In this document: positions 1 to 34,459 of the stretch, piece by piece | Layout of the letters: the number at the start of each line of letters is the position of its first letter | Position numbering within the stretch: position 1 is the stretch's first letter | Assembly: GCA_965202615.1 (NCBI GenBank) | Contig: OZ241837.1 | Location: 136,347 to 200,346, forward strand | Direction of reading: 5' to 3' | DNA: 64,000 nt | Origin: Arenicellales bacterium | GTDB lineage: Bacteria; Pseudomonadota; Gammaproteobacteria; Arenicellales; JAJDZL01 | The notes under the pieces: model-generated | Database searches by the model: none | What the model was told of the DNA's origin: nothing | The model's input: the letters and a program-made list of their open reading frames with translations, nothing else | Made by a program: the position numbers and the translations under genes

Positions 1-675
1 CAGTGGCTTATCAAGCGCATTAGCGACCAGCAACTGTATTTCAGATGGGTGCTGCGTCGAGGAGTGAATGACCATGTCACCGCCTTCTCGCGGCACCGCC
101 ATCGAAGCCTGACCTTCAAGATAAAAGTGATCCTGGCCACCGCATCTGATCGTACCCTTGAGCTGATGCGGCGACCCTTCGATCGCTTGCATGGCATCAC
201 CCCGACTGATGGTCGATGATGGCAATACAAAAGATTTACGCGCCAGGGCCTGTTCGATTGACAGTATTGGCTGTTCAATCTCGTACTCGATGAGCGCCTT
301 TTCACACGCCAGGCGGGCTTCAATCTCGGACTCAGCGGCTACCGCGAACAGTACCTGACCTGCAAATTCGACCTTGTTTTCGGCGAAAATCGGATCATCC
401 CCGATCGTTGGACTGCAGTCGTTCTTGCCGGGTATTGATTCGGCATCGAACACTGCAACGACTCCGGGTGATCCGGGAATTGCACTGGTGTCGATGGAAA
501 CGATGCGGGCCGCAGCATGCGGGCTGAGCGCAGTCCAGATGTGCAGCAGTCCCCTGGGCTCGGGTATGTCGTCAACGTAAACGGCTTCACCGGATACGTG
601 TCGCACGGCGCTATCGTGCGCGATCGGCTGATGCACCGTCGCCGGACTCAAGTTATCCCGCGGACGATCAAGCAT
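1..675 (-). CDS. xdhB: xanthine dehydrogenase molybdopterin-binding large subunit, N-terminal ~225 codons (remainder lies outside the window)
   Basis: The reverse frame is open from the window edge to an ATG at 675..673, where ATGCTTGA overlaps the xdhA stop. My translation MLDRPRDNLSPATVHQPIAHDSAVRHVSGEAVYVDDIPEP...GGQDHFYLEGQ is typical of an XdhB N-terminus. It is absent from the ORF track because the window edge truncates it. Confidence 0.85.
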   Translation of the reverse strand, partial: MLDRPRDNLSPATVHQPIAHDSAVRHVSGEAVYVDDIPEPRGLLHIWTALSPHAAARIVSIDTSAIPGSPGVVAVFDAESIPGKNDCSPTIGDDPIFAENKVEFAGQVLFAVAAESEIEARLACEKALIEYEIEQPILSIEQALARKSFVLPSSTISRGDAMQAIEGSPHQLKGTIRCGGQDHFYLEGQASMAVPREGGDMVIHSSTQHPSEIQLLVANALDKPL

Positions 676-2128
676 GACCGGCTTCCCAGATGCTGGTTGT
701 ATCGCGCCCGTTCAGTTCGTTCGCCATACGTTCGAGCAAAGTGCCCGCGACCAGGGCTCGGTAAGCGGCACCACCTCTGAAATCCGTAATGGGTGCGAAG
801 TCGGACTTCAACGCGGATTTGGCTTCCTCGATGGTGTCTTTTGATAATTGCGATCCTTTCAAGATGCGCTCACAGGCAATCGCCCGTCGCGGTGTTGCAG
901 CCATCCCGCCATAGCAGATCCTTGCGGATTCTACGCGTCCCAACCTTCGCACAATGGAAAAAGCACCGCATACCGCTGAAATATCCTGGTGAAAGCGCTT
1001 GGAAATTTTATAGATTCTGAAATCCTGTCCTGCGCTCGGCAATGGCAGATCAATGCGCTCCAGGAACTCTCCGGGCGCCAAATCCTGTTTCCCATAATCT
1101 AGAAAGAAATCTTCAGCTGGCAGTGTACGGGATTTTTCGGCATCGGTAATGATCAACTGGGCGTTCAGCGCCACCAGTGCCGGCAGACTGTCGCCGATCG
1201 GTGAGCCGTTTGCGACATTTCCGCCGATGGTTGCCAAGTTACGAACCTGGACCGATCCATATCGTCTGAACAATTCATCCAGGGACGGATAGTATTCACA
1301 AATCGTGTCCATCGCGGCCGCGATGGTCGTCGCTGCGCCAATCTGGATTACACCATTCTTGACGGTCACGCCTTGCATTTCCGCGATACCGGAAACCGAA
1401 ACTACGGATTCCAGGTGTCGCCTTTGCTTCGTCACCCACAATCCGACATCCGTCGCGCCGGCAACTACACGGCTGCGTGGTTTTTCTTTCAGAATTCCGG
1501 CAAACTCCCGGATCGATGCGGGCGCATCGTAGCTTTGTCCGTCCGACTCCAGGTGAATTGAAGGCGCTGCGTCCAGCTCGGCCAAGGCGTTGATGGTCTT
1601 GTTCTGGTTTCTGTCGAACTGGTCTTCCTTGCGTGATTTGAGCGATTGTCGCACCGCCCTTACAATCGGGGCATAGCCGGTACAGCGGCATAGGTTTCCG
1701 GCCAGCGCGTCGTCAATCGCCGAACGGCTGGTTTCGCAACCGTCGTGATACATCGCGAACATCGACATAATAAACCCAGGTGTACAAAAACCGCACTGCG
1801 AACCGTGCTGGTCGACCATTGCCTGTTGAACCGGGTGAAGCTGTCCGTTCTCGTCCTTTAGGTGTTCAACGGTGATCAACTGCTTGCCATGCAGGAACGG
1901 CAGGAACATGATGCAGGAATTGCAGGCCTTATAGTGAAGCGCACCGTTCTGCTCCTCGGTTACCACGACGGTGCAGGCGCCGCAATCACCCTCGGCACAG
2001 CCTTCCTTGGTACCGGTCATTCGTTCAACGGTGCGAAGATATTCGAGCACCGTCATGGTCGGACGCAGGTCGCACAGCGACCGCGGCTGATCTCCAAGCA
2101 GAAAACGTACAGCGCTGCGGTCCTGCAT
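668..2128 (-). CDS. xdhA: xanthine dehydrogenase small subunit (2Fe-2S plus FAD-binding)
   Basis: The 486-aa product has ferredoxin-type motifs CAEGDCGACTV and CGFCTPG...CRCTGY followed by an FAD-binding domain. Its stop overlaps the xdhB start. Confidence 0.9.
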   Translation of the reverse strand: MQDRSAVRFLLGDQPRSLCDLRPTMTVLEYLRTVERMTGTKEGCAEGDCGACTVVVTEEQNGALHYKACNSCIMFLPFLHGKQLITVEHLKDENGQLHPVQQAMVDQHGSQCGFCTPGFIMSMFAMYHDGCETSRSAIDDALAGNLCRCTGYAPIVRAVRQSLKSRKEDQFDRNQNKTINALAELDAAPSIHLESDGQSYDAPASIREFAGILKEKPRSRVVAGATDVGLWVTKQRRHLESVVSVSGIAEMQGVTVKNGVIQIGAATTIAAAMDTICEYYPSLDELFRRYGSVQVRNLATIGGNVANGSPIGDSLPALVALNAQLIITDAEKSRTLPAEDFFLDYGKQDLAPGEFLERIDLPLPSAGQDFRIYKISKRFHQDISAVCGAFSIVRRLGRVESARICYGGMAATPRRAIACERILKGSQLSKDTIEEAKSALKSDFAPITDFRGGAAYRALVAGTLLERMANELNGRDTTSIWEAGHA

Positions 2129-2505
2129 CAGCTTCCGCGGTAAGTTGAGTAACCGTAGCGCGACAGCAGCAGCGGTACGTGATAGTGCTGTTCGGGATCA
2201 GAAATTCCGAACCGAATCACGACCTGGTCCAGGAATTTCAGCTCGCTCATGACATCGTCACCTGAACCAAAGTAGTCACCGGCATGAAAAATGATTTCGT
2301 ACAGGCCCCTGGCGAACGCGTCTCCTTCCAGCAAAGGCTGATCGCAGCGTCCATCGTCATTGGTTGAATCAGAGGCAACCCGTGTGCGAGTCGCGGACAA
2401 CTGATCGGAGGACTCATCGCAGTCAAGCCGGTAGAGGTCGATCTTCACGCCGCGACCGGGGCAACCGTTCACTAAATCGAGGACATGGGTTGTCAATTTG
2501 CTCAT
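2128..2505 (-). CDS. uraH: 5-hydroxyisourate hydrolase (transthyretin-like)
   Basis: The 125-aa product starts MSKLTTHVLD and ends YSTYRGS, the YRGS signature of HIU hydrolases. Its stop shares a base with the xdhA ATG (TGATG). Confidence 0.9.
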   Translation of the reverse strand: MSKLTTHVLDLVNGCPGRGVKIDLYRLDCDESSDQLSATRTRVASDSTNDDGRCDQPLLEGDAFARGLYEIIFHAGDYFGSGDDVMSELKFLDQVVIRFGISDPEQHYHVPLLLSRYGYSTYRGS

Positions 2506-3698
2506 TGTTCCTCCCGAAGCAGCGCGGCGTACCAGCCGGCAATGGTCTGGCGTTCCTCTTCTGTCATTTTTGACAGATTGCCGATCGGCATGGAGCGGGT
2601 GGTCACAGAAGTCGCAAAAATGCGGGCTGCATGCTGATTGATTTGATCGTCAGTATCCATTAATATTCCATTCGGGGCAACCGGGAAGCCAGAAAATACA
2701 GGTGTGGCGGAATGACAGACTGTACAACGTTCATGGACGATGTTGCGCACCGTATCTATTGACGCTGATTGTACTGTATCCGCTGTAAATCTTGATTGAG
2801 GCAATGTCCACGCAGCAATCGCCACCACAATCGCTGAGGCAGCAATCAACAGCCACCACTTCACACCCGGCAGATGGCGCACGTTGAAATAATGCCGAAC
2901 CAAAATGCCGGCAACCGCAAGTCCGATCAGTATCAGCCAGTTCAACTCATCAGCAAAAGTGGCCGGGTAGTGGTTGCTGATCATGATGAACAGCACCGGC
3001 AAGGTCAGATAGTTGTTGTGCCGAGACCGGGTGAGCGCAGCCCTGCCGAGACGCGCATCGGGCTCATCCCCGGTTTCCATCGCGGATACGAGTGATTTCT
3101 GGGAAGGAATGATGACCGCCATCACGTTCAGAACCATCACGGTACCGATGGCCGACCCAACATGAATAAATGCCCCGCGACCACTGAATGTATGGCACAG
3201 GAGTATGGTCAGAATACAGAAATATGCGAACACGATTGCAGTCAGCAAGCGGGGTTGCTCACTGAGGTTCGAACGGCACAGAAAGTCGTAGCATAGCCAG
3301 GATATTGCGAGCGAGCCGACCCCGATTGCAATCCCCTGCCATGGTGAAAGTTTTGCAACCGATTGATCAAGCAAAAATACGTTTGCATTGAGATAAAACG
3401 TCAGCACCAGCAGCGCCAAGCCGGTGAACCAAGTGGCATAGGCTTCCCACTTGAACCAGTGAAGGTGGGCTGGAAGCTGGTCCGGCGCCACTTGGTACTT
3501 CTGCACGTGGTAGAATCCGCCGCCGTGTATCGCCCAAAGATCACCTTCGATGGCGCCTTTGGAATTTTGCCGCTCCAGTCGGTTTTCCAGCCAATTGAAG
3601 TAAAAGGACGCACCAATCCACGCAATGCCGACAATCATGTGCGCCCAGCGCAATGACAACTCGAGCCAGTCCAACAGGTGAGTTGTGATTATCGACAT
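2502..3698 (-). CDS. puuD: membrane urate hydroxylase PuuD (DUF989 membrane domain plus C-terminal cytochrome c)
   Basis: The 398-aa polytopic protein has the N-terminal motif LRWAHMIVGIAWIGASFYFNWLENRL and a C-terminal heme motif CTVCHS. It has a 4-nt ATGA overlap with uraH and lies in a purine-catabolic context. Confidence 0.8.
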   Translation of the reverse strand: MSIITTHLLDWLELSLRWAHMIVGIAWIGASFYFNWLENRLERQNSKGAIEGDLWAIHGGGFYHVQKYQVAPDQLPAHLHWFKWEAYATWFTGLALLVLTFYLNANVFLLDQSVAKLSPWQGIAIGVGSLAISWLCYDFLCRSNLSEQPRLLTAIVFAYFCILTILLCHTFSGRGAFIHVGSAIGTVMVLNVMAVIIPSQKSLVSAMETGDEPDARLGRAALTRSRHNNYLTLPVLFIMISNHYPATFADELNWLILIGLAVAGILVRHYFNVRHLPGVKWWLLIAASAIVVAIAAWTLPQSRFTADTVQSASIDTVRNIVHERCTVCHSATPVFSGFPVAPNGILMDTDDQINQHAARIFATSVTTRSMPIGNLSKMTEEERQTIAGWYAALLREEQ

Positions 3699-4107
3699 GT
3701 GAACTTGTTTTTAGTCTTTTTGGTTATCACGGAGCAACGGCCTTTTGCTCACTTTGGGTCTGTCTTTGAACAAGACAGCAAATTTGCGCAGAAATTATAT
3801 TGATTTGACCTGTATTCTGAGTTTCCTCTGCCTTCCACGGTCTCATTGGCGTTTGCACGCATATCCGTCATGTCAAACTTAATTCGTGCCCAAAACTCCA
3901 CAATTGCTGTTTCAAGCGGTAAATTCGACCCTTTCTCTTTTATTTCAATGTGATAAACAGAATAATTTTTCAATGTTCAATGAACTCGGAGGCATTTGCA
4001 CTAAAAATTTCGGAATGAATGACTGAATCAGTCAAAAATAGAAAATCTTATTGACATAATTTATATAAATAATGTCAAATAATTGACTGTATTAACATAT
4101 TGATCAT

Positions 4108-5286
4108 ATGTCAAACAATCGCTATATACCTCAAGTGCTGTTGACACAGCTGCAATCCATTGTTGTTCCAAACAAAGTCGTTGCAGTTTATGGTCCCCGT
4201 CGCGTCGGAAAAACAACATTGCTTCATCAATATGCGAATGAGCATGATCAAAATACACTGTTCGTGAATGGGGAGGACAGATATGTCCGAGAATATCTGG
4301 AAAGTGAGTCAATTGGCAAGCTTAGAGATTTTGTCGGCAGCCGACGGACGCTTATTGTGGACGAGGCGCAGCATGTCCGGCAAATTGGATTGAACCTCAA
4401 GTTGCTGGTTGACCATGTGGAAGGACTTAGAATTATCGCAAGCGGCTCATCATCCTTTGATCTCACTCAAGTCACAGGCGAGCCTCTAACAGGAAGAAGA
4501 TCCACCCTGCTCCTTCTGCCGCTTGCGCAATTGGAACTCAAAAACGTGGAAGAGGCACACGAAACTACCGCCAATCTCGAAGCTCGCCTCATTTACGGTT
4601 CTTATCCGGAGGTCATTCTTATGAGTTCCAACGAGGACCGTCAAAACTACCTGAAGGATTTGATCGCGTCGCATTTACTGAGAGATATTCTGCAATTCGA
4701 GGGAGTTCGGCATCGTGGCAAGCTAGGTGACCTTCTCCAATTGATCGCATTTCAAGTCGGTCAGGACGTATCACTTTCTGAGCTGGGCGGTCAGGTTGGA
4801 ATGAGCAAAAACACAGTGGAGCGCTATCTCTACTTGTTCGAAAAATCCTTTATCCTTTACAGTCGACGCGGATTCAGTCGTAATTTACGCAAAGCAATCA
4901 GCAAGACTCGTCGGTACTATTTCTACGACACTGGTGTTCGGAACGCATTTGTCAGTAATTTCAATCCCATAAACTTGAGAAACGACATCGGAGCGCTATG
5001 GGAGAATTACGTTTTGGCAGAGCGAATGAAAAACAACCTCTATAGCAGGCGTCTGGTGAACAGCTATTTTTGGCGAACCTATGACCGCCAGGAGATCGGC
5101 TTGATCGAAGAAACCGACGGTCGTCTGCTTGCTGCAGAAGCAAAGTGGTCTCAGAAATCTTCACCGCGCGTGCCGCGGGCCTGGCGTCAAGCACATCCTG
5201 AAAGCTCATTTCAAGTGGTCAATCCCGAAAACTACCTTGAATTCGTTGGTGCATCTCGTCGTCAGCCGATGGAAGACGAACAATAG
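4108..5286 (+). CDS. AAA+ ATPase with DUF4143-type C-terminal domain
   Basis: The 392-aa product has Walker A GPRRVGKTT and Walker B LIVDEAQ. The length and C-terminal pattern (WRTYDRQEIGLIEE) fit the ATP-binding/DUF4143 family. It is flanked by AT-rich DNA. Confidence 0.8.
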   Translation: MSNNRYIPQVLLTQLQSIVVPNKVVAVYGPRRVGKTTLLHQYANEHDQNTLFVNGEDRYVREYLESESIGKLRDFVGSRRTLIVDEAQHVRQIGLNLKLLVDHVEGLRIIASGSSSFDLTQVTGEPLTGRRSTLLLLPLAQLELKNVEEAHETTANLEARLIYGSYPEVILMSSNEDRQNYLKDLIASHLLRDILQFEGVRHRGKLGDLLQLIAFQVGQDVSLSELGGQVGMSKNTVERYLYLFEKSFILYSRRGFSRNLRKAISKTRRYYFYDTGVRNAFVSNFNPINLRNDIGALWENYVLAERMKNNLYSRRLVNSYFWRTYDRQEIGLIEETDGRLLAAEAKWSQKSSPRVPRAWRQAHPESSFQVVNPENYLEFVGASRRQPMEDEQ

Positions 5287-5475
5287 AGCTGTTGACGAAC
5301 GGGATTGCCGCCACCTGTCTGATGAGAGCCGGTGAGGGCGGCACTTTGGCCTCAATGTTCTCGAAGATGACCTGTGTTCAGTGCGTATCGCCTACCCACA
5401 AATGCCTTTGTATGCGACACTTGGTCTCCGCGCTTGGCAATCCCAACTGCCTATTGAAGAAATTGTTTTGCCCGT

Positions 5476-6993
5476 TTAGCTCGAGTCGTCATTGTCGGCT
5501 TTCTTTTCAGCGCGTCTCGCCCGAAGACTTGGCAGAACGATCAAAATTACTGCGACCGCGAGCAGCGCAAGCGTCATTGGTCTTTCAACAATGAACGCGG
5601 CGCCATCATAGAGCTGCATGGATCGAGCGAAGTTGTCCTCAAGCATTGACCCGAGAATAAACCCGATCAAAACAGGCGCGAGCGGATAGCCCGCAATCCG
5701 CAAGGCGGTTGCGACGACTCCCATTCCCGTCAGGATCAGAAGCTCTGTCGCATTGTTCTGGCCGATGTAAGCTCCCATGAGCGTGAAAAACAGGATAAAT
5801 GGGATCAGGTAGTTGCGCGGAACGCTGAGCACTTTGGCGATATATGGAATTAGCGGCAGATTCAGAATCAGCAGTATCAGGTTGCCGAGATACATTGAAA
5901 TTATTACGGCCCAAAAAATTGACGGATTGTCAATCATCAGTCGGGGACCGGGCGCGACATTCAGCGCGATCAGCGCACCGAGCAGAATCGCGGTCGTCCC
6001 CGAACCGGGAATACCCAAGGTCAGCAGCGGCACAAAGGAGCCGGTAACCGCGGCGTTATTGGCACACTCCGGTGCCGCCAGTCCCTTAAGCGATCCCTTG
6101 CCAAACTCTTTCTGTTCCTCTTTGCTGGCAATGTTGCGTTCAACCGCATAGCCCAAAAAAGACGATATGGTCGCACCTGCACCCGGCAACACACCGATCA
6201 GAAAGCCCTGAATCGCCTGCCGGCCAATAACGGGCGTAATGGTCTTGGCTTCCTGCCTTGTGATCCTCAAGTCTTTTATCTCGCCGGAACTGTCTCCCTT
6301 TTTCTGAGACCGCTTCGGGTCTAGCACCATGAAAATCGCCTCCGGCAGAGCGAACATCGCCATTGCAAGCGTGATAAATCCAAACCCCGACTGCAGATCT
6401 TGAATTCCCATCGTAAACCGCGGCATGTTGAACAGCACGCCTTCGCCAACGGTCGCCATGATCAGCCCGAGCAATGTCATCATCAATGCCTTGGCGATCT
6501 GGCCGGAACCCGCAAATGCAGCGATTGCAGACAACCCGACGACCATGAGAGCAAAATACTCGGCTGAATGAAACAGCAGCGCTACCGTGACCAAGGCCGG
6601 TGCGAATATCATCAGCAAAATCGCACCAAGCGTACCACCGGCAAACGAAGAAATTGCAGCGACCGTCAGTGCCTTTCCTGCCTTTCCCTGGCTTGCGAGC
6701 GGGAACCCGTCAAAGCTGGTCGCGACCGTCGAGGAAACTCCGGGGGCGTTAATCAGGATTGATGAGGTTGACCCACCGAAAATTGCGCCGTAATAGACGC
6801 CAGCCAGCAAAATCAGCGCAGCCGATGGATCTCCAATCGTGATCGCGATTGGGATCATGATCGCGATAATCGACATCGGGCCAAGACCCGGCAGCATTCC
6901 GATGAATGTTCCAATCAGACATCCCCCGACCACCATCAGAATATTGACTGGTGAGAAAACGGTGGTCAGGCCGATCAGTATGCCCTCGATCAT
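5476..6993 (-). CDS. tctA: tripartite tricarboxylate transporter large permease
   Basis: The 505-aa highly hydrophobic protein looks TctA-like and is followed by tctB and tctC in the canonical order. Confidence 0.9.
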   Translation of the reverse strand: MIEGILIGLTTVFSPVNILMVVGGCLIGTFIGMLPGLGPMSIIAIMIPIAITIGDPSAALILLAGVYYGAIFGGSTSSILINAPGVSSTVATSFDGFPLASQGKAGKALTVAAISSFAGGTLGAILLMIFAPALVTVALLFHSAEYFALMVVGLSAIAAFAGSGQIAKALMMTLLGLIMATVGEGVLFNMPRFTMGIQDLQSGFGFITLAMAMFALPEAIFMVLDPKRSQKKGDSSGEIKDLRITRQEAKTITPVIGRQAIQGFLIGVLPGAGATISSFLGYAVERNIASKEEQKEFGKGSLKGLAAPECANNAAVTGSFVPLLTLGIPGSGTTAILLGALIALNVAPGPRLMIDNPSIFWAVIISMYLGNLILLILNLPLIPYIAKVLSVPRNYLIPFILFFTLMGAYIGQNNATELLILTGMGVVATALRIAGYPLAPVLIGFILGSMLEDNFARSMQLYDGAAFIVERPMTLALLAVAVILIVLPSLRARRAEKKADNDDSS

Positions 6994-30533: not shown

Positions 30534-31253
30534 TCAATCAAGGGGTTTGTATTCGAATGACTAGTTTTCGACACGCTCCGCGGACTGACACCTCCTTGGA
30601 GGAGAACGTGTAGTCAATTGTAGAGTTGAGAGTGCACGATGAGCGTTCAATAAATCTTGTAACAGAACTAAACCACCGGAATCGACTGGCTTTAGTTCAC
30701 GAAGCAATTGGTATAAATGACAACCTTGTCGAGTGTGAACTCACTGTACACCGAAGACCCTTTGATGTAGAACTCACATTCACCAATCTGTCAAAAAATC
30801 ATAAGCAAAGGTTGACCGTGATGAAGGTGAGCGTTTCCCAATGAAGATGCGTAGACGCTTGATATTAAAAGTTTTTAGGGGAATAGTGAGAGCCCGATCT
30901 TCAAATACAACGTCGGTTCGTGGAAAAGCTGTCTGGTGCAGTTTTGGGTGATGAACGCGTTGTATTCTTGGGCATATTAGCCGCTGTGTTGTGTCGACTT
31001 GAAGATGGAACAATTGAGTTTGCTGGGATTCCCAACAGCCGCGTGCCTGTCGTCAAAACGAAACAAATGATTGATTTGGGGGTGGTATACAAAGCCCGAA
31101 CAATACTAGAGACGATTGAGCATGGTTTGCGACAACATGGTCAACTTTAGTGCATAAATCCCGCACTACAATTAACGTTTAAATCGAACTTTATTGGTTT
31201 CCTGATTGTCTCATTTGTGTTGTACCAGTCAGATCACCAATATTGAAATACAA

Positions 31254-31261
31254 TAGAAATA
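31254..31261. repeat. target-site duplication TAGAAATA (left)
   Basis: This 8-mer is identical to the one at 33657-33664 and immediately abuts the IS terminal inverted repeat. Confidence 0.9.
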
Positions 31262-31310
31262 GTAACTACTCGGACGGTTTGAGTAATCGGTCCGGCAGTT
31301 AGAGTGCATT

Positions 31311-32804
31311 TTATTCGCTGTCAGTGAGGATGTCTGCGGCTTTGTTTTGTAGTGCGATTTGAATGGCAGTTAACGGGTTGTAGCCCATCAGGCTCATTGA
31401 TTGCAGATAGCTTGAGATGCGGCAATAAGCGGCGGCATATTCGGGTGAGCGGAACGTGCCACTGACTTTTTGCTTGATTTTCGAACCCCTGATTGACCTT
31501 TCCGCGAGATTATTGCTCATAGGACAAGCAGCGTTTTTGGTAAAGCGAAGGATCTCAGTTTCGTAGGTCTCGAAAGCCTCCAGCAGATTGTGTGCATTGG
31601 TCTTCGGTGTACGGCCGCGCTTTCCTGTCCGCTCCGGCAACTCCGGCAACTCCTTTTTACCTTGCGTCAAAATCGTCCGGTACTGCTTGCGCACTGCTTT
31701 GCAACGCTCATCGGTGAGTTTCTTCTGTTCCGTTGCAGCCACTTCGCGGTTCGTTTTCAGGAGCAGCTTTTGCATTCTGTCTGCCCAGCTATGACCATGC
31801 GCATCAACGACAAACTGCAGATCGCGCAGCAAGTGGCTGCCGCATAATGCATGCGCACACTTCTTGTAATTGAAATAACTCGCCCAGCGGTCATGGACCA
31901 GCACGGGTTTTTTATCATCGTCGTCTTCATCTTCATCTTTGCTGCGCCCGGCACCGTAGCGCGGGAGGATGTTGATCTCGTCCATCGCCTCGGTGCCGCG
32001 TTTGGGATGGCAAAACTTCACAATCAGGTTGCCGGATGAATAACTGTGCAGCCAGTGGTTTTTCTTGTTGATGCGAATCGAGGTCTCATCCGCATGCATC
32101 ACCGGCATTTGCAGCAACTGCTCGGTCGCAGCCGCTTCCCATTCGGCCAGCGCCAGATGAACCCGCATCACCCAGGCCATCAAGGTGGACTCTGAGATCA
32201 GCCGCCCGGTCATCACCTTGAGCAACTGTGCGGTACGCCTGACCGCAATCATCTGCGAGATCAGCAAATGAACCGCATAAGCCACGATGCCAGCGCCATA
32301 TTGCAGGCGACCCGGCATGGTGTCCGGAAAAGTGCCGCGGGTGATGCGCTCGCAGGCCGGACAGCGCTTGATTTCAGCATCGATATGATGTTCTTCGGTG
32401 AGGAACACAATGTCAACCAGAGTGCGGCGCTCATGACCAAGCGGCTTCACGCTGGTTAAATCCTTACCGCAGTTGCCACAGTGCTCCACCTCAGAGACCT
32501 CGCTGGTCGACTTGGTTTGTGTGTTGTCGCATTCGCTGTGCGGGTGTTTGCGTCCCTTGCCCTTGGAACCGGCGCTCGATTTTGCCGTATCGTCCTCGGG
32601 CGACTTGGAGCTCGGCAGCCCGGAGTTGGCTGAGCTTTTCGGGGTTTTCTTTTCAACCAGCAGCATCACCACTGTGGTGAGCAGCAACATGAGCGACTGA
32701 AACAGCTGCAGCGTCTTGTCATTGAACTCGCCAGCGTCCTTGAGCTGCTCAAACTGAGCCTGCAGCTCAGACAGATTCTTCTGTATCGACGCCGGCGTGC
32801 TCAT
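31311..32804 (-). CDS. IS66-family transposase (TnpC-type)
   Basis: The 497-aa product has an N-terminal coiled coil, zinc-ribbon motifs CGNCGKD...CPACE and a DDE region (HADETSIRINKKNHWLH). Confidence 0.9.
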   Translation of the reverse strand: MSTPASIQKNLSELQAQFEQLKDAGEFNDKTLQLFQSLMLLLTTVVMLLVEKKTPKSSANSGLPSSKSPEDDTAKSSAGSKGKGRKHPHSECDNTQTKSTSEVSEVEHCGNCGKDLTSVKPLGHERRTLVDIVFLTEEHHIDAEIKRCPACERITRGTFPDTMPGRLQYGAGIVAYAVHLLISQMIAVRRTAQLLKVMTGRLISESTLMAWVMRVHLALAEWEAAATEQLLQMPVMHADETSIRINKKNHWLHSYSSGNLIVKFCHPKRGTEAMDEINILPRYGAGRSKDEDEDDDDKKPVLVHDRWASYFNYKKCAHALCGSHLLRDLQFVVDAHGHSWADRMQKLLLKTNREVAATEQKKLTDERCKAVRKQYRTILTQGKKELPELPERTGKRGRTPKTNAHNLLEAFETYETEILRFTKNAACPMSNNLAERSIRGSKIKQKVSGTFRSPEYAAAYCRISSYLQSMSLMGYNPLTAIQIALQNKAADILTDSE

Positions 32805-33475
32805 CGCTCCGCCTCAACCGACATGATGGCACCAAGCACCGCCACGCGCTCGGCACGCCCCATCGCCTGATAGCGCCGCGCCCAGTTCTGCGCCTTGCGC
32901 TTAATATTCTGACGGTGATTCGGATTGTCCCCGGCATGACGCGACCAGTGCAGCCGGTCTATGTCAAAGTTGTACCACACCACCTCAGTCACCACCCCCG
33001 CCTGATTCATCACCTGAACCTCAAGACGGCGCCAATTCGACAACAACTCATCATACAAAGCAGAACGATAGCCCGACACCATCACCTGGCACGGCAGCGA
33101 CTTCAAGATCTCAAGCAACTCCACATGGTCCGCTTCCTCGTAATCGTAGCGGTACCGATACCGCTCAGGCGCCTTGCGGGTGCTTTTCAGATACGGCGGG
33201 TCGGCATAAACCAGCACATCCTTGTCAAATTCATGGCCGCTCAGATATTCATGGCAGCAGCCATGAATCAGTTCAACCGGATAGTCGCAGGAGAAATCCG
33301 CAATGGCGGCCGCATCCAGATCAATGCCGATGTTATGCAGCGCCGGAGGCTTGCGCTTGAGAATGGAGCCACCGCCCAAATGCGTTTCGAGATATACATT
33401 ATGTGGGGGCATCATGCCGATCAATGGCTGGCACAGACCTGCGGTTGCTTTGGACCCAAGATAGGCTTTGCCCAT
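32801..33475 (-). CDS. D12-class (Dam-like) N6-adenine DNA methyltransferase
   Basis: The 224-aa product has YLGSK...P.HNVYLETHLGGGS (AdoMet motif) and YADPPYL (catalytic DPPY). It has a 4-nt ATGA overlap with the transposase gene and lies inside the IS inverted repeats. Confidence 0.8.
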   Translation of the reverse strand: MGKAYLGSKATAGLCQPLIGMMPPHNVYLETHLGGGSILKRKPPALHNIGIDLDAAAIADFSCDYPVELIHGCCHEYLSGHEFDKDVLVYADPPYLKSTRKAPERYRYRYDYEEADHVELLEILKSLPCQVMVSGYRSALYDELLSNWRRLEVQVMNQAGVVTEVVWYNFDIDRLHWSRHAGDNPNHRQNIKRKAQNWARRYQAMGRAERVAVLGAIMSVEAER

Positions 33476-33656
33476 CGGTTGCTCCTGTCATTTGCTCACT
33501 ACCTGTAAGAATAGGCGATTAGATCGCAAATGTCAAGCGCTCATTAAAACCTTCGCTGGTGACGGTGACGGTCGCAAGTGCCGATTAAATCCATACTTCT
33601 GACGATTCAGGCTCCACACCTGAAAGGCGAGTAAAATTACCCGTCCGAGTAGTTAC

Positions 33657-33664
33657 TAGAAATA
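33657..33664. repeat. target-site duplication TAGAAATA (right)
   Basis: This 8-mer is identical to the one at 31254-31261 and immediately abuts the IS terminal inverted repeat. Confidence 0.9.
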
Positions 33665-33695
33665 TTGGATTGGGGGAAGTACCCGGTCGGCGATT

Positions 33696-33728: not shown

Positions 33729-33931
33729 AGGGAAACACTTTAAATCAGCAGCCTGCAATTTCTTCCGAGTTGATTTTTCGAAATTTCTTCTCAATGATGT
33801 CGGCTTCCGATTGCAGATCCGGGTTGCTCTATAGCTGCTGTCAGCGATTCACTAACTCCTATATAATTCAGCGGCATTGTCGGGGCTGACATTCTTCATT
33901 GCTGCGTGGTTCAAATCTCGACAAGACAAGC

Positions 33932-34008
<77 letters not shown>

Positions 34009-34382: not shown

Positions 34383-34459
34383 GGTGGGCGTAGCTCAGTT
34401 GGTAGAGCCCTGGATTGTGGTTCCAGTCGTCGTGGGTTCAAGTCCCATCGTCCACCCCA
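34383..34459 (+). tRNA. tRNA-His (anticodon GUG) with encoded G-1
   Basis: The acceptor is GTGGGCG/CGTCCAC with an extra 5' G opposite C73. The anticodon loop is TTGTGGT and CCA is encoded. Confidence 0.9.

Follow-up and report, generated by a model that had tools for sequence, protein, structure and literature searches.

A Dam-like methyltransferase gene heads the transposase operon of an ISBst12-group insertion sequence and belongs to a cassette shared by several transposase types

Introduction

To our knowledge, insertion sequences (ISs) are usually thought to carry only what is needed for their movement. The locus described here raises the question of what a methyltransferase gene is doing inside one of them. 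It lies in a 64-kb window of an Arenicellales bacterium (64,000 nucleotides, positions 136,347 to 200,346 of contig OZ241837.1 in assembly GCA_965202615.1; "the window" below is this whole stretch, to which all coordinates refer) and consists of a 2,395-bp IS of the IS66 family (31262-33656). The minus-strand operon of this element has two genes, the first encoding a 224-aa Dam-like methyltransferase (MT, used below for both gene and protein) and the second the transposase. The classical cases of methylation-controlled transposition that we know of (IS10 and IS50) rely on the Dam methylase of the host. We report that MT is a regular component of its element, that one and the same methylase cassette stands in front of several transposase types, and that the cassette brings along a promoter with a conserved dyad. 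The anatomy and distribution of the element are solid, and the mechanism proposed for it is a testable hypothesis.

Structure of the element

The element is bounded by perfect 16-bp inverted repeats of the sequence GTAACTACTCGGACGG, with IRR at the 3' end of the operon (31262-31277, plus strand) and IRL at the promoter-proximal end (33641-33656, minus strand). These are the sole two matches in the window with up to three mismatches (0.24 expected). A perfect 8-bp target-site duplication, TAGAAATA, was read directly on the left (31254-31261) and in identical form on the right (33657-33664), and the insertion is clean. Both the repeats and the duplication had been recognized in a first-pass annotation of this DNA; the span that it gave to the element, 31254-33664, holds the features described but includes both duplications, the element proper being 31262-33656.

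The downstream gene of the operon encodes a tnpC-type DDE transposase of 497 aa from the ISBst12-like branch of the IS66 family (31311-32804, minus strand). The upstream gene encodes a compact Dam-like S-adenosylmethionine (SAM)-dependent methyltransferase (32801-33475, minus strand; 224 aa, with HLGGGS as motif I and DPPY as motif IV) and is the only substantial open reading frame (ORF) on the operon strand inside the repeats besides the transposase. The GGGS and YADPPY sequences of MT and its location inside the repeats were seen as previously described, as was the translational coupling of the two genes by an ATGA in which the MT stop codon overlaps the transposase start codon (32801-32804, minus strand). 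A Shine-Dalgarno sequence, AGGAG (33481-33485, minus strand), was read directly 5 nt before the MT ATG. Just inside the promoter-proximal repeat lies a sigma-70-type operon promoter, TTGACA-17 nt-TATTCT (33508-33536, minus strand; 10 of 12 matches), which by its position is the homologue of the promoter conserved among cassettes of this family. This cassette promoter is the sole promoter-like site facing the operon upstream of both genes. In the window copy its spacer contains the dyad GCGAT-CTA-ATCGC (33515-33527, minus strand), which includes a GATC and may act as an operator or a methylation site; most relatives have CATAG-N10-CTATG at the corresponding position. The element is present once in the window, and is best read as an intact copy, inserted recently, of an ISBst12-group IS that exists in multiple copies.

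At the end of MT, the conserved C-terminal residues AVEAE are encoded by GTGGAGGCNGA, which doubles as the Shine-Dalgarno sequence of the transposase gene in the window (32801-32825) and in relatives; the conservation of the protein at its C-terminus may therefore partly reflect the overlapping signal.

Assignment of the transposase to the ISBst12 group

The transposase matched the Pfam domain DDE_Tnp_IS66 (PF03050; 139 bits, E = 2e-40) and the NCBIfam model transpos_IS66 (NF033517; 239.6 bits against a cut-off of 180), in agreement with its earlier description as an IS66-type DDE enzyme, and the CxxC...CxxC and DET.../HDRW.../NLAER motifs are visible in its translation. Its nearest annotated relatives (30-36% identity), all IS66 elements with a single ORF, come from Bacillus, Geobacillus, Anoxybacillus, Deinococcus, and Acaryochloris; one of them, located on a plasmid of Anoxybacillus, spans 1,634 bp, contains one gene, and has the ends GTAACTATTCAGCC. 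ISDge4, a member of the ISBst12 group that has been shown to transpose, has the ends GTGACTACTCAGCA and makes 8-bp duplications (PMC12898284). The first 10 nt of the terminal repeat, GTAACTACTC, are kept in relatives from many phyla, with a C-rich stretch after them, and resemble the ends of the ISBst12 group. The similarity of its transposase and the sequence of its terminal repeats place the element in the ISBst12 group within the IS66 family.

The hallmarks of IS66 are all found in the window element, namely the IS66-type DDE transposase, the 8-bp duplication, and ends starting with 5'-GTAA. With ISBst12 and ISDge4 it further shares the lack of tnpA and tnpB beside a DDE_Tnp_IS66 transposase and ends that begin with GTAACTAYTC. 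It differs from annotated members of this group, to which its transposase is just 30-36% identical, in size and gene content, since these have a length of ~1.6 kb and a single ORF, whereas the window element measures 2.4 kb and has two coupled ORFs, with MT and its promoter inserted. Canonical IS66 elements (tnpA-tnpB-tnpC) resemble it in the transposase family, the 8-bp duplication, the GTAA termini, and the coupling of upstream gene(s) to tnpC; in contrast to them, the window element lacks homologues of TnpA and TnpB, and MT matched neither protein in Pfam or NCBIfam. The first-pass annotation had placed MT in an accessory slot where it would have replaced tnpA and tnpB. This interpretation was abandoned, because the ISBst12 group never had these two genes; the methylase cassette was thus added upstream of tnpC and not swapped in, and ~0.75 kb, comprising the promoter and the MT gene, was gained between the left end and tnpC.

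Copies, distribution, and selection

Three near-identical copies of the element were found in one metagenome, each 2,393 bp long with the same repeats and the same two ORFs overlapping by 4 nt. They lie in differing contexts and their 8-bp duplications differ (GATTTCGG, CAAAATAA, and AATTTTTA). The 90%-identity cluster of MT comprises 32 member sequences, and at least six variants from it were found on one 4.25-Mb contig, which sets a lower bound of six for the count of copies in the full genome that the first-pass annotation had proposed. A 64%-identical relative is present in several copies in one assembly, in varied contexts and with an IS66 transposase gene after each. Sampling from the transposase side gave the same picture, with an MT gene (219 aa) directly upstream in all eight places inspected. 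The possibility of a chance capture, considered in the first-pass annotation, is not borne out, as MT was present in all other copies and relatives examined. We conclude that MT is an integral part of the element.

A protein search retrieved over 3,000 clusters of homologous proteins, formed at 90% identity (~220 aa; 62-97% identity in the search), and pattern scans yielded at least 561 confirmed genome loci and at least 540 metagenome loci. The hosts include Gammaproteobacteria (Arenicellales and Pseudomonadales), Alphaproteobacteria (Paracoccaceae), Acidobacteriota, Chloroflexota (Caldilineaceae), Rhodothermales, and Kiritimatiellota (Pontiella), and the metagenome-assembled genomes (MAGs) among them are mostly of marine, sponge-associated, symbiont, or sediment origin. 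In several of these phyla, related elements are present in more than one copy per genome.

The ratios of nonsynonymous to synonymous substitution rates (dN/dS) calculated for six element pairs were 0.08-0.16 for MT and 0.15-0.40 for the transposase, the value for MT being the lower one in all pairs. MT is therefore under stronger purifying selection than the transposase. We are highly confident that the anatomy is as described and that the cassette is an integral, selected part of the element. In three Arenicellales MAGs, transposase-less fragments (L014, 3808-4870; L016, 3812-4675; L017, ~3815-4860) have retained the left repeat, the promoter, and an intact MT ORF of 223-224 aa together with only ~200 bp of the transposase 5' end. 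The fragments are non-syntenic and 76-85% identical to each other at the nucleotide level. MT thus seems to have been kept after transposase loss in these genomes, which may point to domestication or a host-level benefit.

One further locus (L097) contains two complete MT-transposase units in tandem (1837-3988 and 4280-6431), ~290 bp apart, with Abi and type ISP restriction genes as neighbours.

Association of the cassette with other transposases

A set of 169 loci found via MT was classified by the downstream transposase. The window-type transposase followed MT in 130 loci, a canonical IS66 TnpC in 12, and an IS4-like transposase (DDE_Tnp_1) in 7; among the other 20, the downstream gene was cut by the contig end in 8 and was decayed or something else in the rest. 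MT was closely followed by the transposase gene for every transposase type, the two genes sharing 4 nt or being separated by 1-30 nt.

The canonical IS66 TnpC partners contain the LZ, DDE_IS66, and IS66_C domains (344 bits to NF033517). Their elements have ends of their own (GTAAGCGGGTAAAC...) that enclose MT, and three intact copies are flanked by the 8-bp duplications ATTGGTAC, GGTTCCGA, and GATCCGGC. A true replacement of tnpA and tnpB by MT is seen only in this canonical-IS66 lineage of Paracoccaceae (L070, L072, and L076). The ends (C)CAGCAGTTCTCATTTTGG of the IS4-like type likewise enclose both genes, and 7-bp duplications were found in six different genomes. In two metagenome contigs (L105 and L106), MT stands before an IS1634-family transposase (NF033559, 249 bits). 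The L105 copy is a 3.2-kb unit (16-3192) between IS1634-type repeats, CTTACTTTCCGCGCAT, with an ISBst12-type left end, GTAACTACTCACCCC, at ~476-490, upstream of MT. The L105 and L106 copies have different flanks, indicating that this chimera has moved as a unit. We had also considered that every association outside IS66 is an IS with MT inside its own ends; this holds for the IS4-like elements, whereas the IS1634 case is the chimera with the ISBst12-type left end. At another locus (L177), MT precedes an IS701-like enzyme that scored 159 bits, below the cut-off of 170.

These data reveal a new association in which one MT cassette is shared by at least three further transposase types (canonical IS66 TnpC, IS4-like, and IS1634), and the IS701-like enzyme is perhaps an additional partner. 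In a tree of MT proteins, which is unbootstrapped and indicative only, the IS4-linked proteins were scattered among the IS66-linked ones and grouped by host taxon, a pattern suggesting that elements residing together have exchanged the cassette repeatedly. When the terminal repeats of the several IS types were compared, no shared motif that could be a common methylase target was seen.

Two other groups of loci were noted. Seven canonical-IS66-type copies in one Paracoccaceae MAG, CAXXGT (L069, L071, L073-L075, L080, and L081), match the transposase only over residues 1-315 and have no right repeat within the DNA examined; they may represent a deletion derivative or copies split by another insertion. 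Directly 3' of the MT cassette at L179 (1050-2648), a 532-aa ORF without a Pfam or NCBIfam match may be an undescribed type of transposase.

The conserved promoter dyad

The upstream regions of MT genes (106 unique sequences, aligned on the -35 box) gave the consensus C-TTGACA-n-CATAG-N10-CTATG-(C/G)-T, in which TTGACA occupies positions 0-5 and TATGsT positions 23-28, leaving a 17-nt spacer. The CATAG and CTATG half-sites are exact reverse complements, and the right half-site overlaps the -10 box. Information content was 1.0-2.0 bits in the dyad as against 0.05-0.2 bits at ten positions between the half-sites, so that the conservation of the dyad next to variable positions is not due to shared descent alone. 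The exact dyad was found in 60 of the 106 regions and a relaxed form in 93, and it occurs with every transposase type. In four sequences both half-sites are changed symmetrically to GTAG...CTAC, which may stem from a single event. The dyad motif was not seen in the terminal repeats.

The same dyad precedes homologues that are not part of an IS. A homologue on the Xanthomonas oryzae plasmid pCIX2779_1 (49% identity) is preceded by TGGCCA-A-CATAG-N10-CTATGCTG, and one from a viral contig (44% identity) by TCGACA-C-CATAG-N10-CTATG, suggesting that the dyad belongs with the methylase and not with any transposase or host.

The 5' leaders of relatives (e.g., L117, L128, and L164) also contain a 9-bp helix with a ~12-nt loop directly after the -10 box, often GCTGATCCA...TGGATCAGC with a GATC in each arm. 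The helix is not evident in the window copy (33476-33507). For a hand-specified helix, pairing was observed in 80% of cells compared with 16-48% in slid controls, with 17 compensatory cells; RNAalifold returned a weak consensus, to which the hand-specified helix was superior. It may be a 5' hairpin of the mRNA or a second DNA dyad. A subgroup of relatives has nearly no leader, with ~9 nt from the -10 box to the ATG.

The methyltransferase protein

MT matched the D12-class methyltransferase domain PF02086 with 24.2 bits (gathering score of 22), PHROG 56 with an E-value of 7e-25, and PADLOC MTase_II with 8e-23, so that the profile check proposed in the first-pass annotation did detect methyltransferase signatures in this ORF. 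The assignment to the D12 class made there is retained in part: the PF02086 score and motifs I and IV agree with it, but the match is restricted to profile positions 174-250 of 253, the C-terminal third, and the score for the NCBIfam Dam subfamily TIGR00571 was 28 bits, below its cut-off of 115. Motif I, HLGGGS, lies at residues 32-37 and precedes motif IV, DPPY, at residues 92-95. Across 25 diverse members, aligned with a mean column identity of 74%, H32, L33, G34, G36, the motif II acidic residue D52, and DPPY were invariant. MT also parallels the N-terminus of Dam and DpnM in having an N-terminal GSKAT-GL-Q-I motif and in its motif order.

An AlphaFold model built from the 25-member alignment had a mean predicted local distance difference test score (pLDDT) of 73, with a well-predicted core. 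In this model, a Rossmann fold of seven strands leads into a basic helical hairpin (residues 185-223). In Foldseek searches of the PDB with this model, E. coli Dam and DpnM ranked first (E ~5e-7, TM ~0.5), and a search of PDB sequences with the family profile aligned only the motif I and DPPY regions of DpnM and T4 Dam. The gap between motifs I and IV of MT is only ~55 residues, which indicates that the helical target-recognition domain (TRD) of Dam is absent. From its sequence, MT is best described as a Dam-related catalytic core lacking the Dam TRD. It is probably an active DNA adenine methylase, given the SAM-binding and catalytic motifs that are intact under purifying selection, the matching family profiles, and the homologues on plasmids and phages described below.

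In the Arenicellales clade, the loop after DPPY (residues 96-113, window 33137-33190) is two residues longer than elsewhere (KAPERYRYRY vs KS-R--RYRx), and the same clade has no canonical left CATAG half-site. This may be protein-promoter co-variation, with phylogeny as a confounder. Loop length was also compared with the presence of the canonical dyad, which is lacking for six of seven proteins with a 15-residue loop, a suggestive pattern; phylogeny and the strict pattern confound this comparison, and it was not used.

Homologues on plasmids and phages

Full-length homologues of MT with 42-49% identity are encoded by orphan "DNA adenine methylase" genes on conjugative plasmids and P2-like phages. 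There are 179 plasmid records, 129 of them conjugative, including the IncP-1 plasmid pBP136 and X. oryzae pCIX2779_1, and the phages include SEN4 and SEN5. These genes belong to the same protein family as MT and likewise reside on mobile DNA with no restriction partner; the gene on the X. oryzae plasmid shares even the dyad promoter with the IS cassettes. In contrast to the IS-encoded genes they stand alone, and no transposase neighbour was found beside any plasmid or phage homologue inspected. The IS-linked proteins formed one clade apart from the plasmid and phage proteins in a neighbour-joining tree (unbootstrapped).

Searched against 1.8 billion 50%-identity cluster representatives, the family profile matched 1,165 clusters at E<=1e-30, a number that rose to 8,729 at E<=1e-3. 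A megablast search against 72,556 plasmids found no close DNA relatives of the element, all plasmid matches at the protein level were below 60% identity, and a scan of viral contigs for MT gave three homologues, all distant. The element type is thus effectively absent from cultured and annotated records. M.EcoGIX is a documented orphan methylase of plasmids, from a different (beta) class (PMC7736820). M.EcoGII and M.EcoGIX were considered as relatives of MT and rejected, as both are beta-class enzymes; M.EcoGIX and M.BceJIII are hence analogues only (PMC7736820).

Discussion

On balance, we favour the interpretation that the element carries a portable, self-regulated methylase cassette that drives expression of the transposase. 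MT would make N6-methyladenine in DNA, and the dyad over its own -10 box would be one of its target or binding sites, so that methylase and transposase would limit their own expression. The two genes would be strongly expressed from an unmethylated copy on its arrival in a naive cell or immediately after replication, and weakly after the copies in the cell had methylated or occupied every promoter in trans. With an element-borne methylase, such control would work in hosts without Dam and for any transposase behind the cassette, and the latter would explain its recruitment by several IS families. The central step, in which the dyad is a target or binding site of MT and exerts negative feedback on methylase and transposase together, is a realistic possibility, though short of probable. 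More tentative is the complete scheme, in which the TRD-less methylase and its dyad promoter would form a portable self-regulating epigenetic switch, independently recruited by at least four transposase lineages of three IS families (IS66 twice, IS4-like, and IS1634, possibly with an IS701-like lineage as the fifth), whose own mark would sense a naive versus an established host and throttle transposition.

Several observations weigh against this interpretation. In the window copy and its relatives from Arenicellales, the left CATAG half-site is missing and other dyads are found, and for the window copy the model is an extrapolation. The half-sites are 15 bp apart from centre to centre, which is unusual for a dimeric repressor and neutral as to a methylase. 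CATAG is neither depleted nor enriched in the bodies of the elements (observed/expected ratio, 1.09). Without the Dam TRD, the reading of a 5-bp site by MT is hard to explain. The MT model is of moderate quality (pLDDT 73), and Rossmann-fold RNA and protein methyltransferases score nearly as well as Dam in Foldseek. Finally, the fragments with an intact MT and a deleted transposase persist, and a host-level benefit fits them at least as well.

The Dam site of IS10 overlaps the -10 box of the transposase promoter. The suggestion in the first-pass annotation that MT could couple transposition to the methylation state, as Dam does for IS10 and IS50, gains indirect support from the family-wide dyad over the -10 box of the cassette promoter, although the dyad of the window copy is a different one. 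Dam control of IS10/Tn10, IS50/Tn5, and IS903 is similar to the arrangement proposed here in that a short methylatable or bindable motif lies over the -10 box of the promoter driving the transposase, and by analogy transposase expression is predicted to be coupled to the methylation state, to replication, and to entry into a new cell. It differs in that the methylase is the host Dam and the site is GATC, which is also present in an IS end, whereas in the present case the element itself encodes the methylase, CATAG-N10-CTATG (a different dyad in the window copy) is the motif, and the control is predicted from sequence. Some restriction-modification (R-M) methylases regulate their own promoter, those of the SsoII type by binding and CfrBI by methylation of a promoter site. 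They too have a short symmetric motif at the -10/-35 region before the methylase gene, and negative feedback is expected; unlike them, the IS cassette has no restriction gene, and the regulated downstream gene is a transposase.

The strongest competing explanation treats MT as cargo, an orphan methylase that travels as a passenger in the manner of a transporter IS (tIS) and benefits the host or the vector DNA through anti-restriction or the epigenome, with no role in transposition. On this view, MT would head the operon solely because the cassette was inserted there. The nearest relatives outside ISs, the orphan methylases of conjugative plasmids and P2-like phages, are usually read as anti-restriction genes, with M.EcoGIX of plasmids as a precedent from another methylase class (PMC7736820). 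The intact MT ORFs of the transposase-less fragments, 76-85% identical at the nucleotide level, and the hosts, largely marine, sediment, and symbiont MAGs, would also fit this view. However, an IS cannot move between cells alone, and anti-restriction at entry would therefore rarely be selected. Transporter ISs resemble our element, which could formally be classed with them, in having an extra non-transposase gene within the repeats of an otherwise simple IS, but their passengers are usually separate, variable, and lineage-specific. MT, on the other hand, has a constant position and orientation as the first cistron of the transposase operon, is tightly coupled to five kinds of transposase in several IS families, supplies the promoter, and is more conserved than the transposase. 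Position, coupling, conservation, and sharing argue for a role of MT in the biology of the element itself, beyond mere cargo, and we regard the cargo explanation as rather unlikely, although it retains some weight.

It is improbable that MT is no longer a methylase and acts as a DNA-binding accessory, either as a repressor of the operon at the dyad or as a transposition cofactor replacing TnpA/TnpB. Such a role would agree with the lack of a recognisable TRD, the basic helical hairpin at the C-terminus, and the symmetric, repressor-like dyad with its four symmetrically changed GTAG...CTAC variants, and SsoII-type R-M methylases do repress their own promoters by binding. Yet motif I, the motif II acidic residue, and DPPY are invariant in all 25 aligned members and MT is under strong purifying selection, whereas a dispensable catalytic function would be expected to decay; binding and catalysis can also coexist, and a transposase-specific cofactor is unlikely when the partners come from unrelated DDE families. 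We consider it still less probable that MT modifies RNA or protein and that its likeness to Dam is limited to the shared Rossmann fold and the (D/N)PPY motif. TGS1, MnmM, rRNA methylases, and HemK come close to Dam in Foldseek score, and the D12 sequence match is confined to the DPPY region; against this, the best sequence profiles all represent DNA methyltransferase families, the N-terminal GSKAT-GL-Q-I and the motif order parallel Dam and DpnM, and homologues occupy places typical of DNA methylases, the backbones of phages and plasmids. A chance juxtaposition or single capture of MT, for which just the single copy in the window could speak, is refuted with near certainty by the one repeat pair and one duplication that both genes share in many independent copies and lineages.

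Searches of the full-text literature turned up no account of a coupled methylase in an IS66 or ISBst12 element or in any bacterial IS family; such elements may possibly be catalogued in ISfinder or REBASE. In a study of Mariner elements of eukaryotic viruses, Bao and Jurka (2013) noted that methylases in transposons had not previously been reported (PMC3627910). If the self-regulated cassette is confirmed, it would be the first case of epigenetic control of transposition encoded by an IS and would introduce a new regulatory logic for transposons, with a self-written epigenetic memory, possibly copy-number sensing, and a burst of activity in a naive cell. It would also explain the tolerance of very high IS loads in symbiont and sediment bacteria, and a compact adenine methylase without a target domain may serve as a tool. 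That the cassette has spread over unrelated transposases also illustrates clearly how IS families exchange modules. Even if MT were cargo, an orphan methylase spread by thousands of IS copies would contribute greatly, and in a way overlooked until now, to the variation of epigenomes among marine bacteria.

Insertion site

The empty site reconstructed from the flanks of the element (31235-31261 and 33657-33678) places the insertion inside a short intergenic palindrome, CCAATATT-N13-AATATTGG. Because of this target-site palindrome, a repeat finder stretched the inverted repeat of the element to 31 nt. The site is ~270 bp from a tRNA-Pro gene (33931-34007), after which comes a tRNA-His gene (34384-34459).

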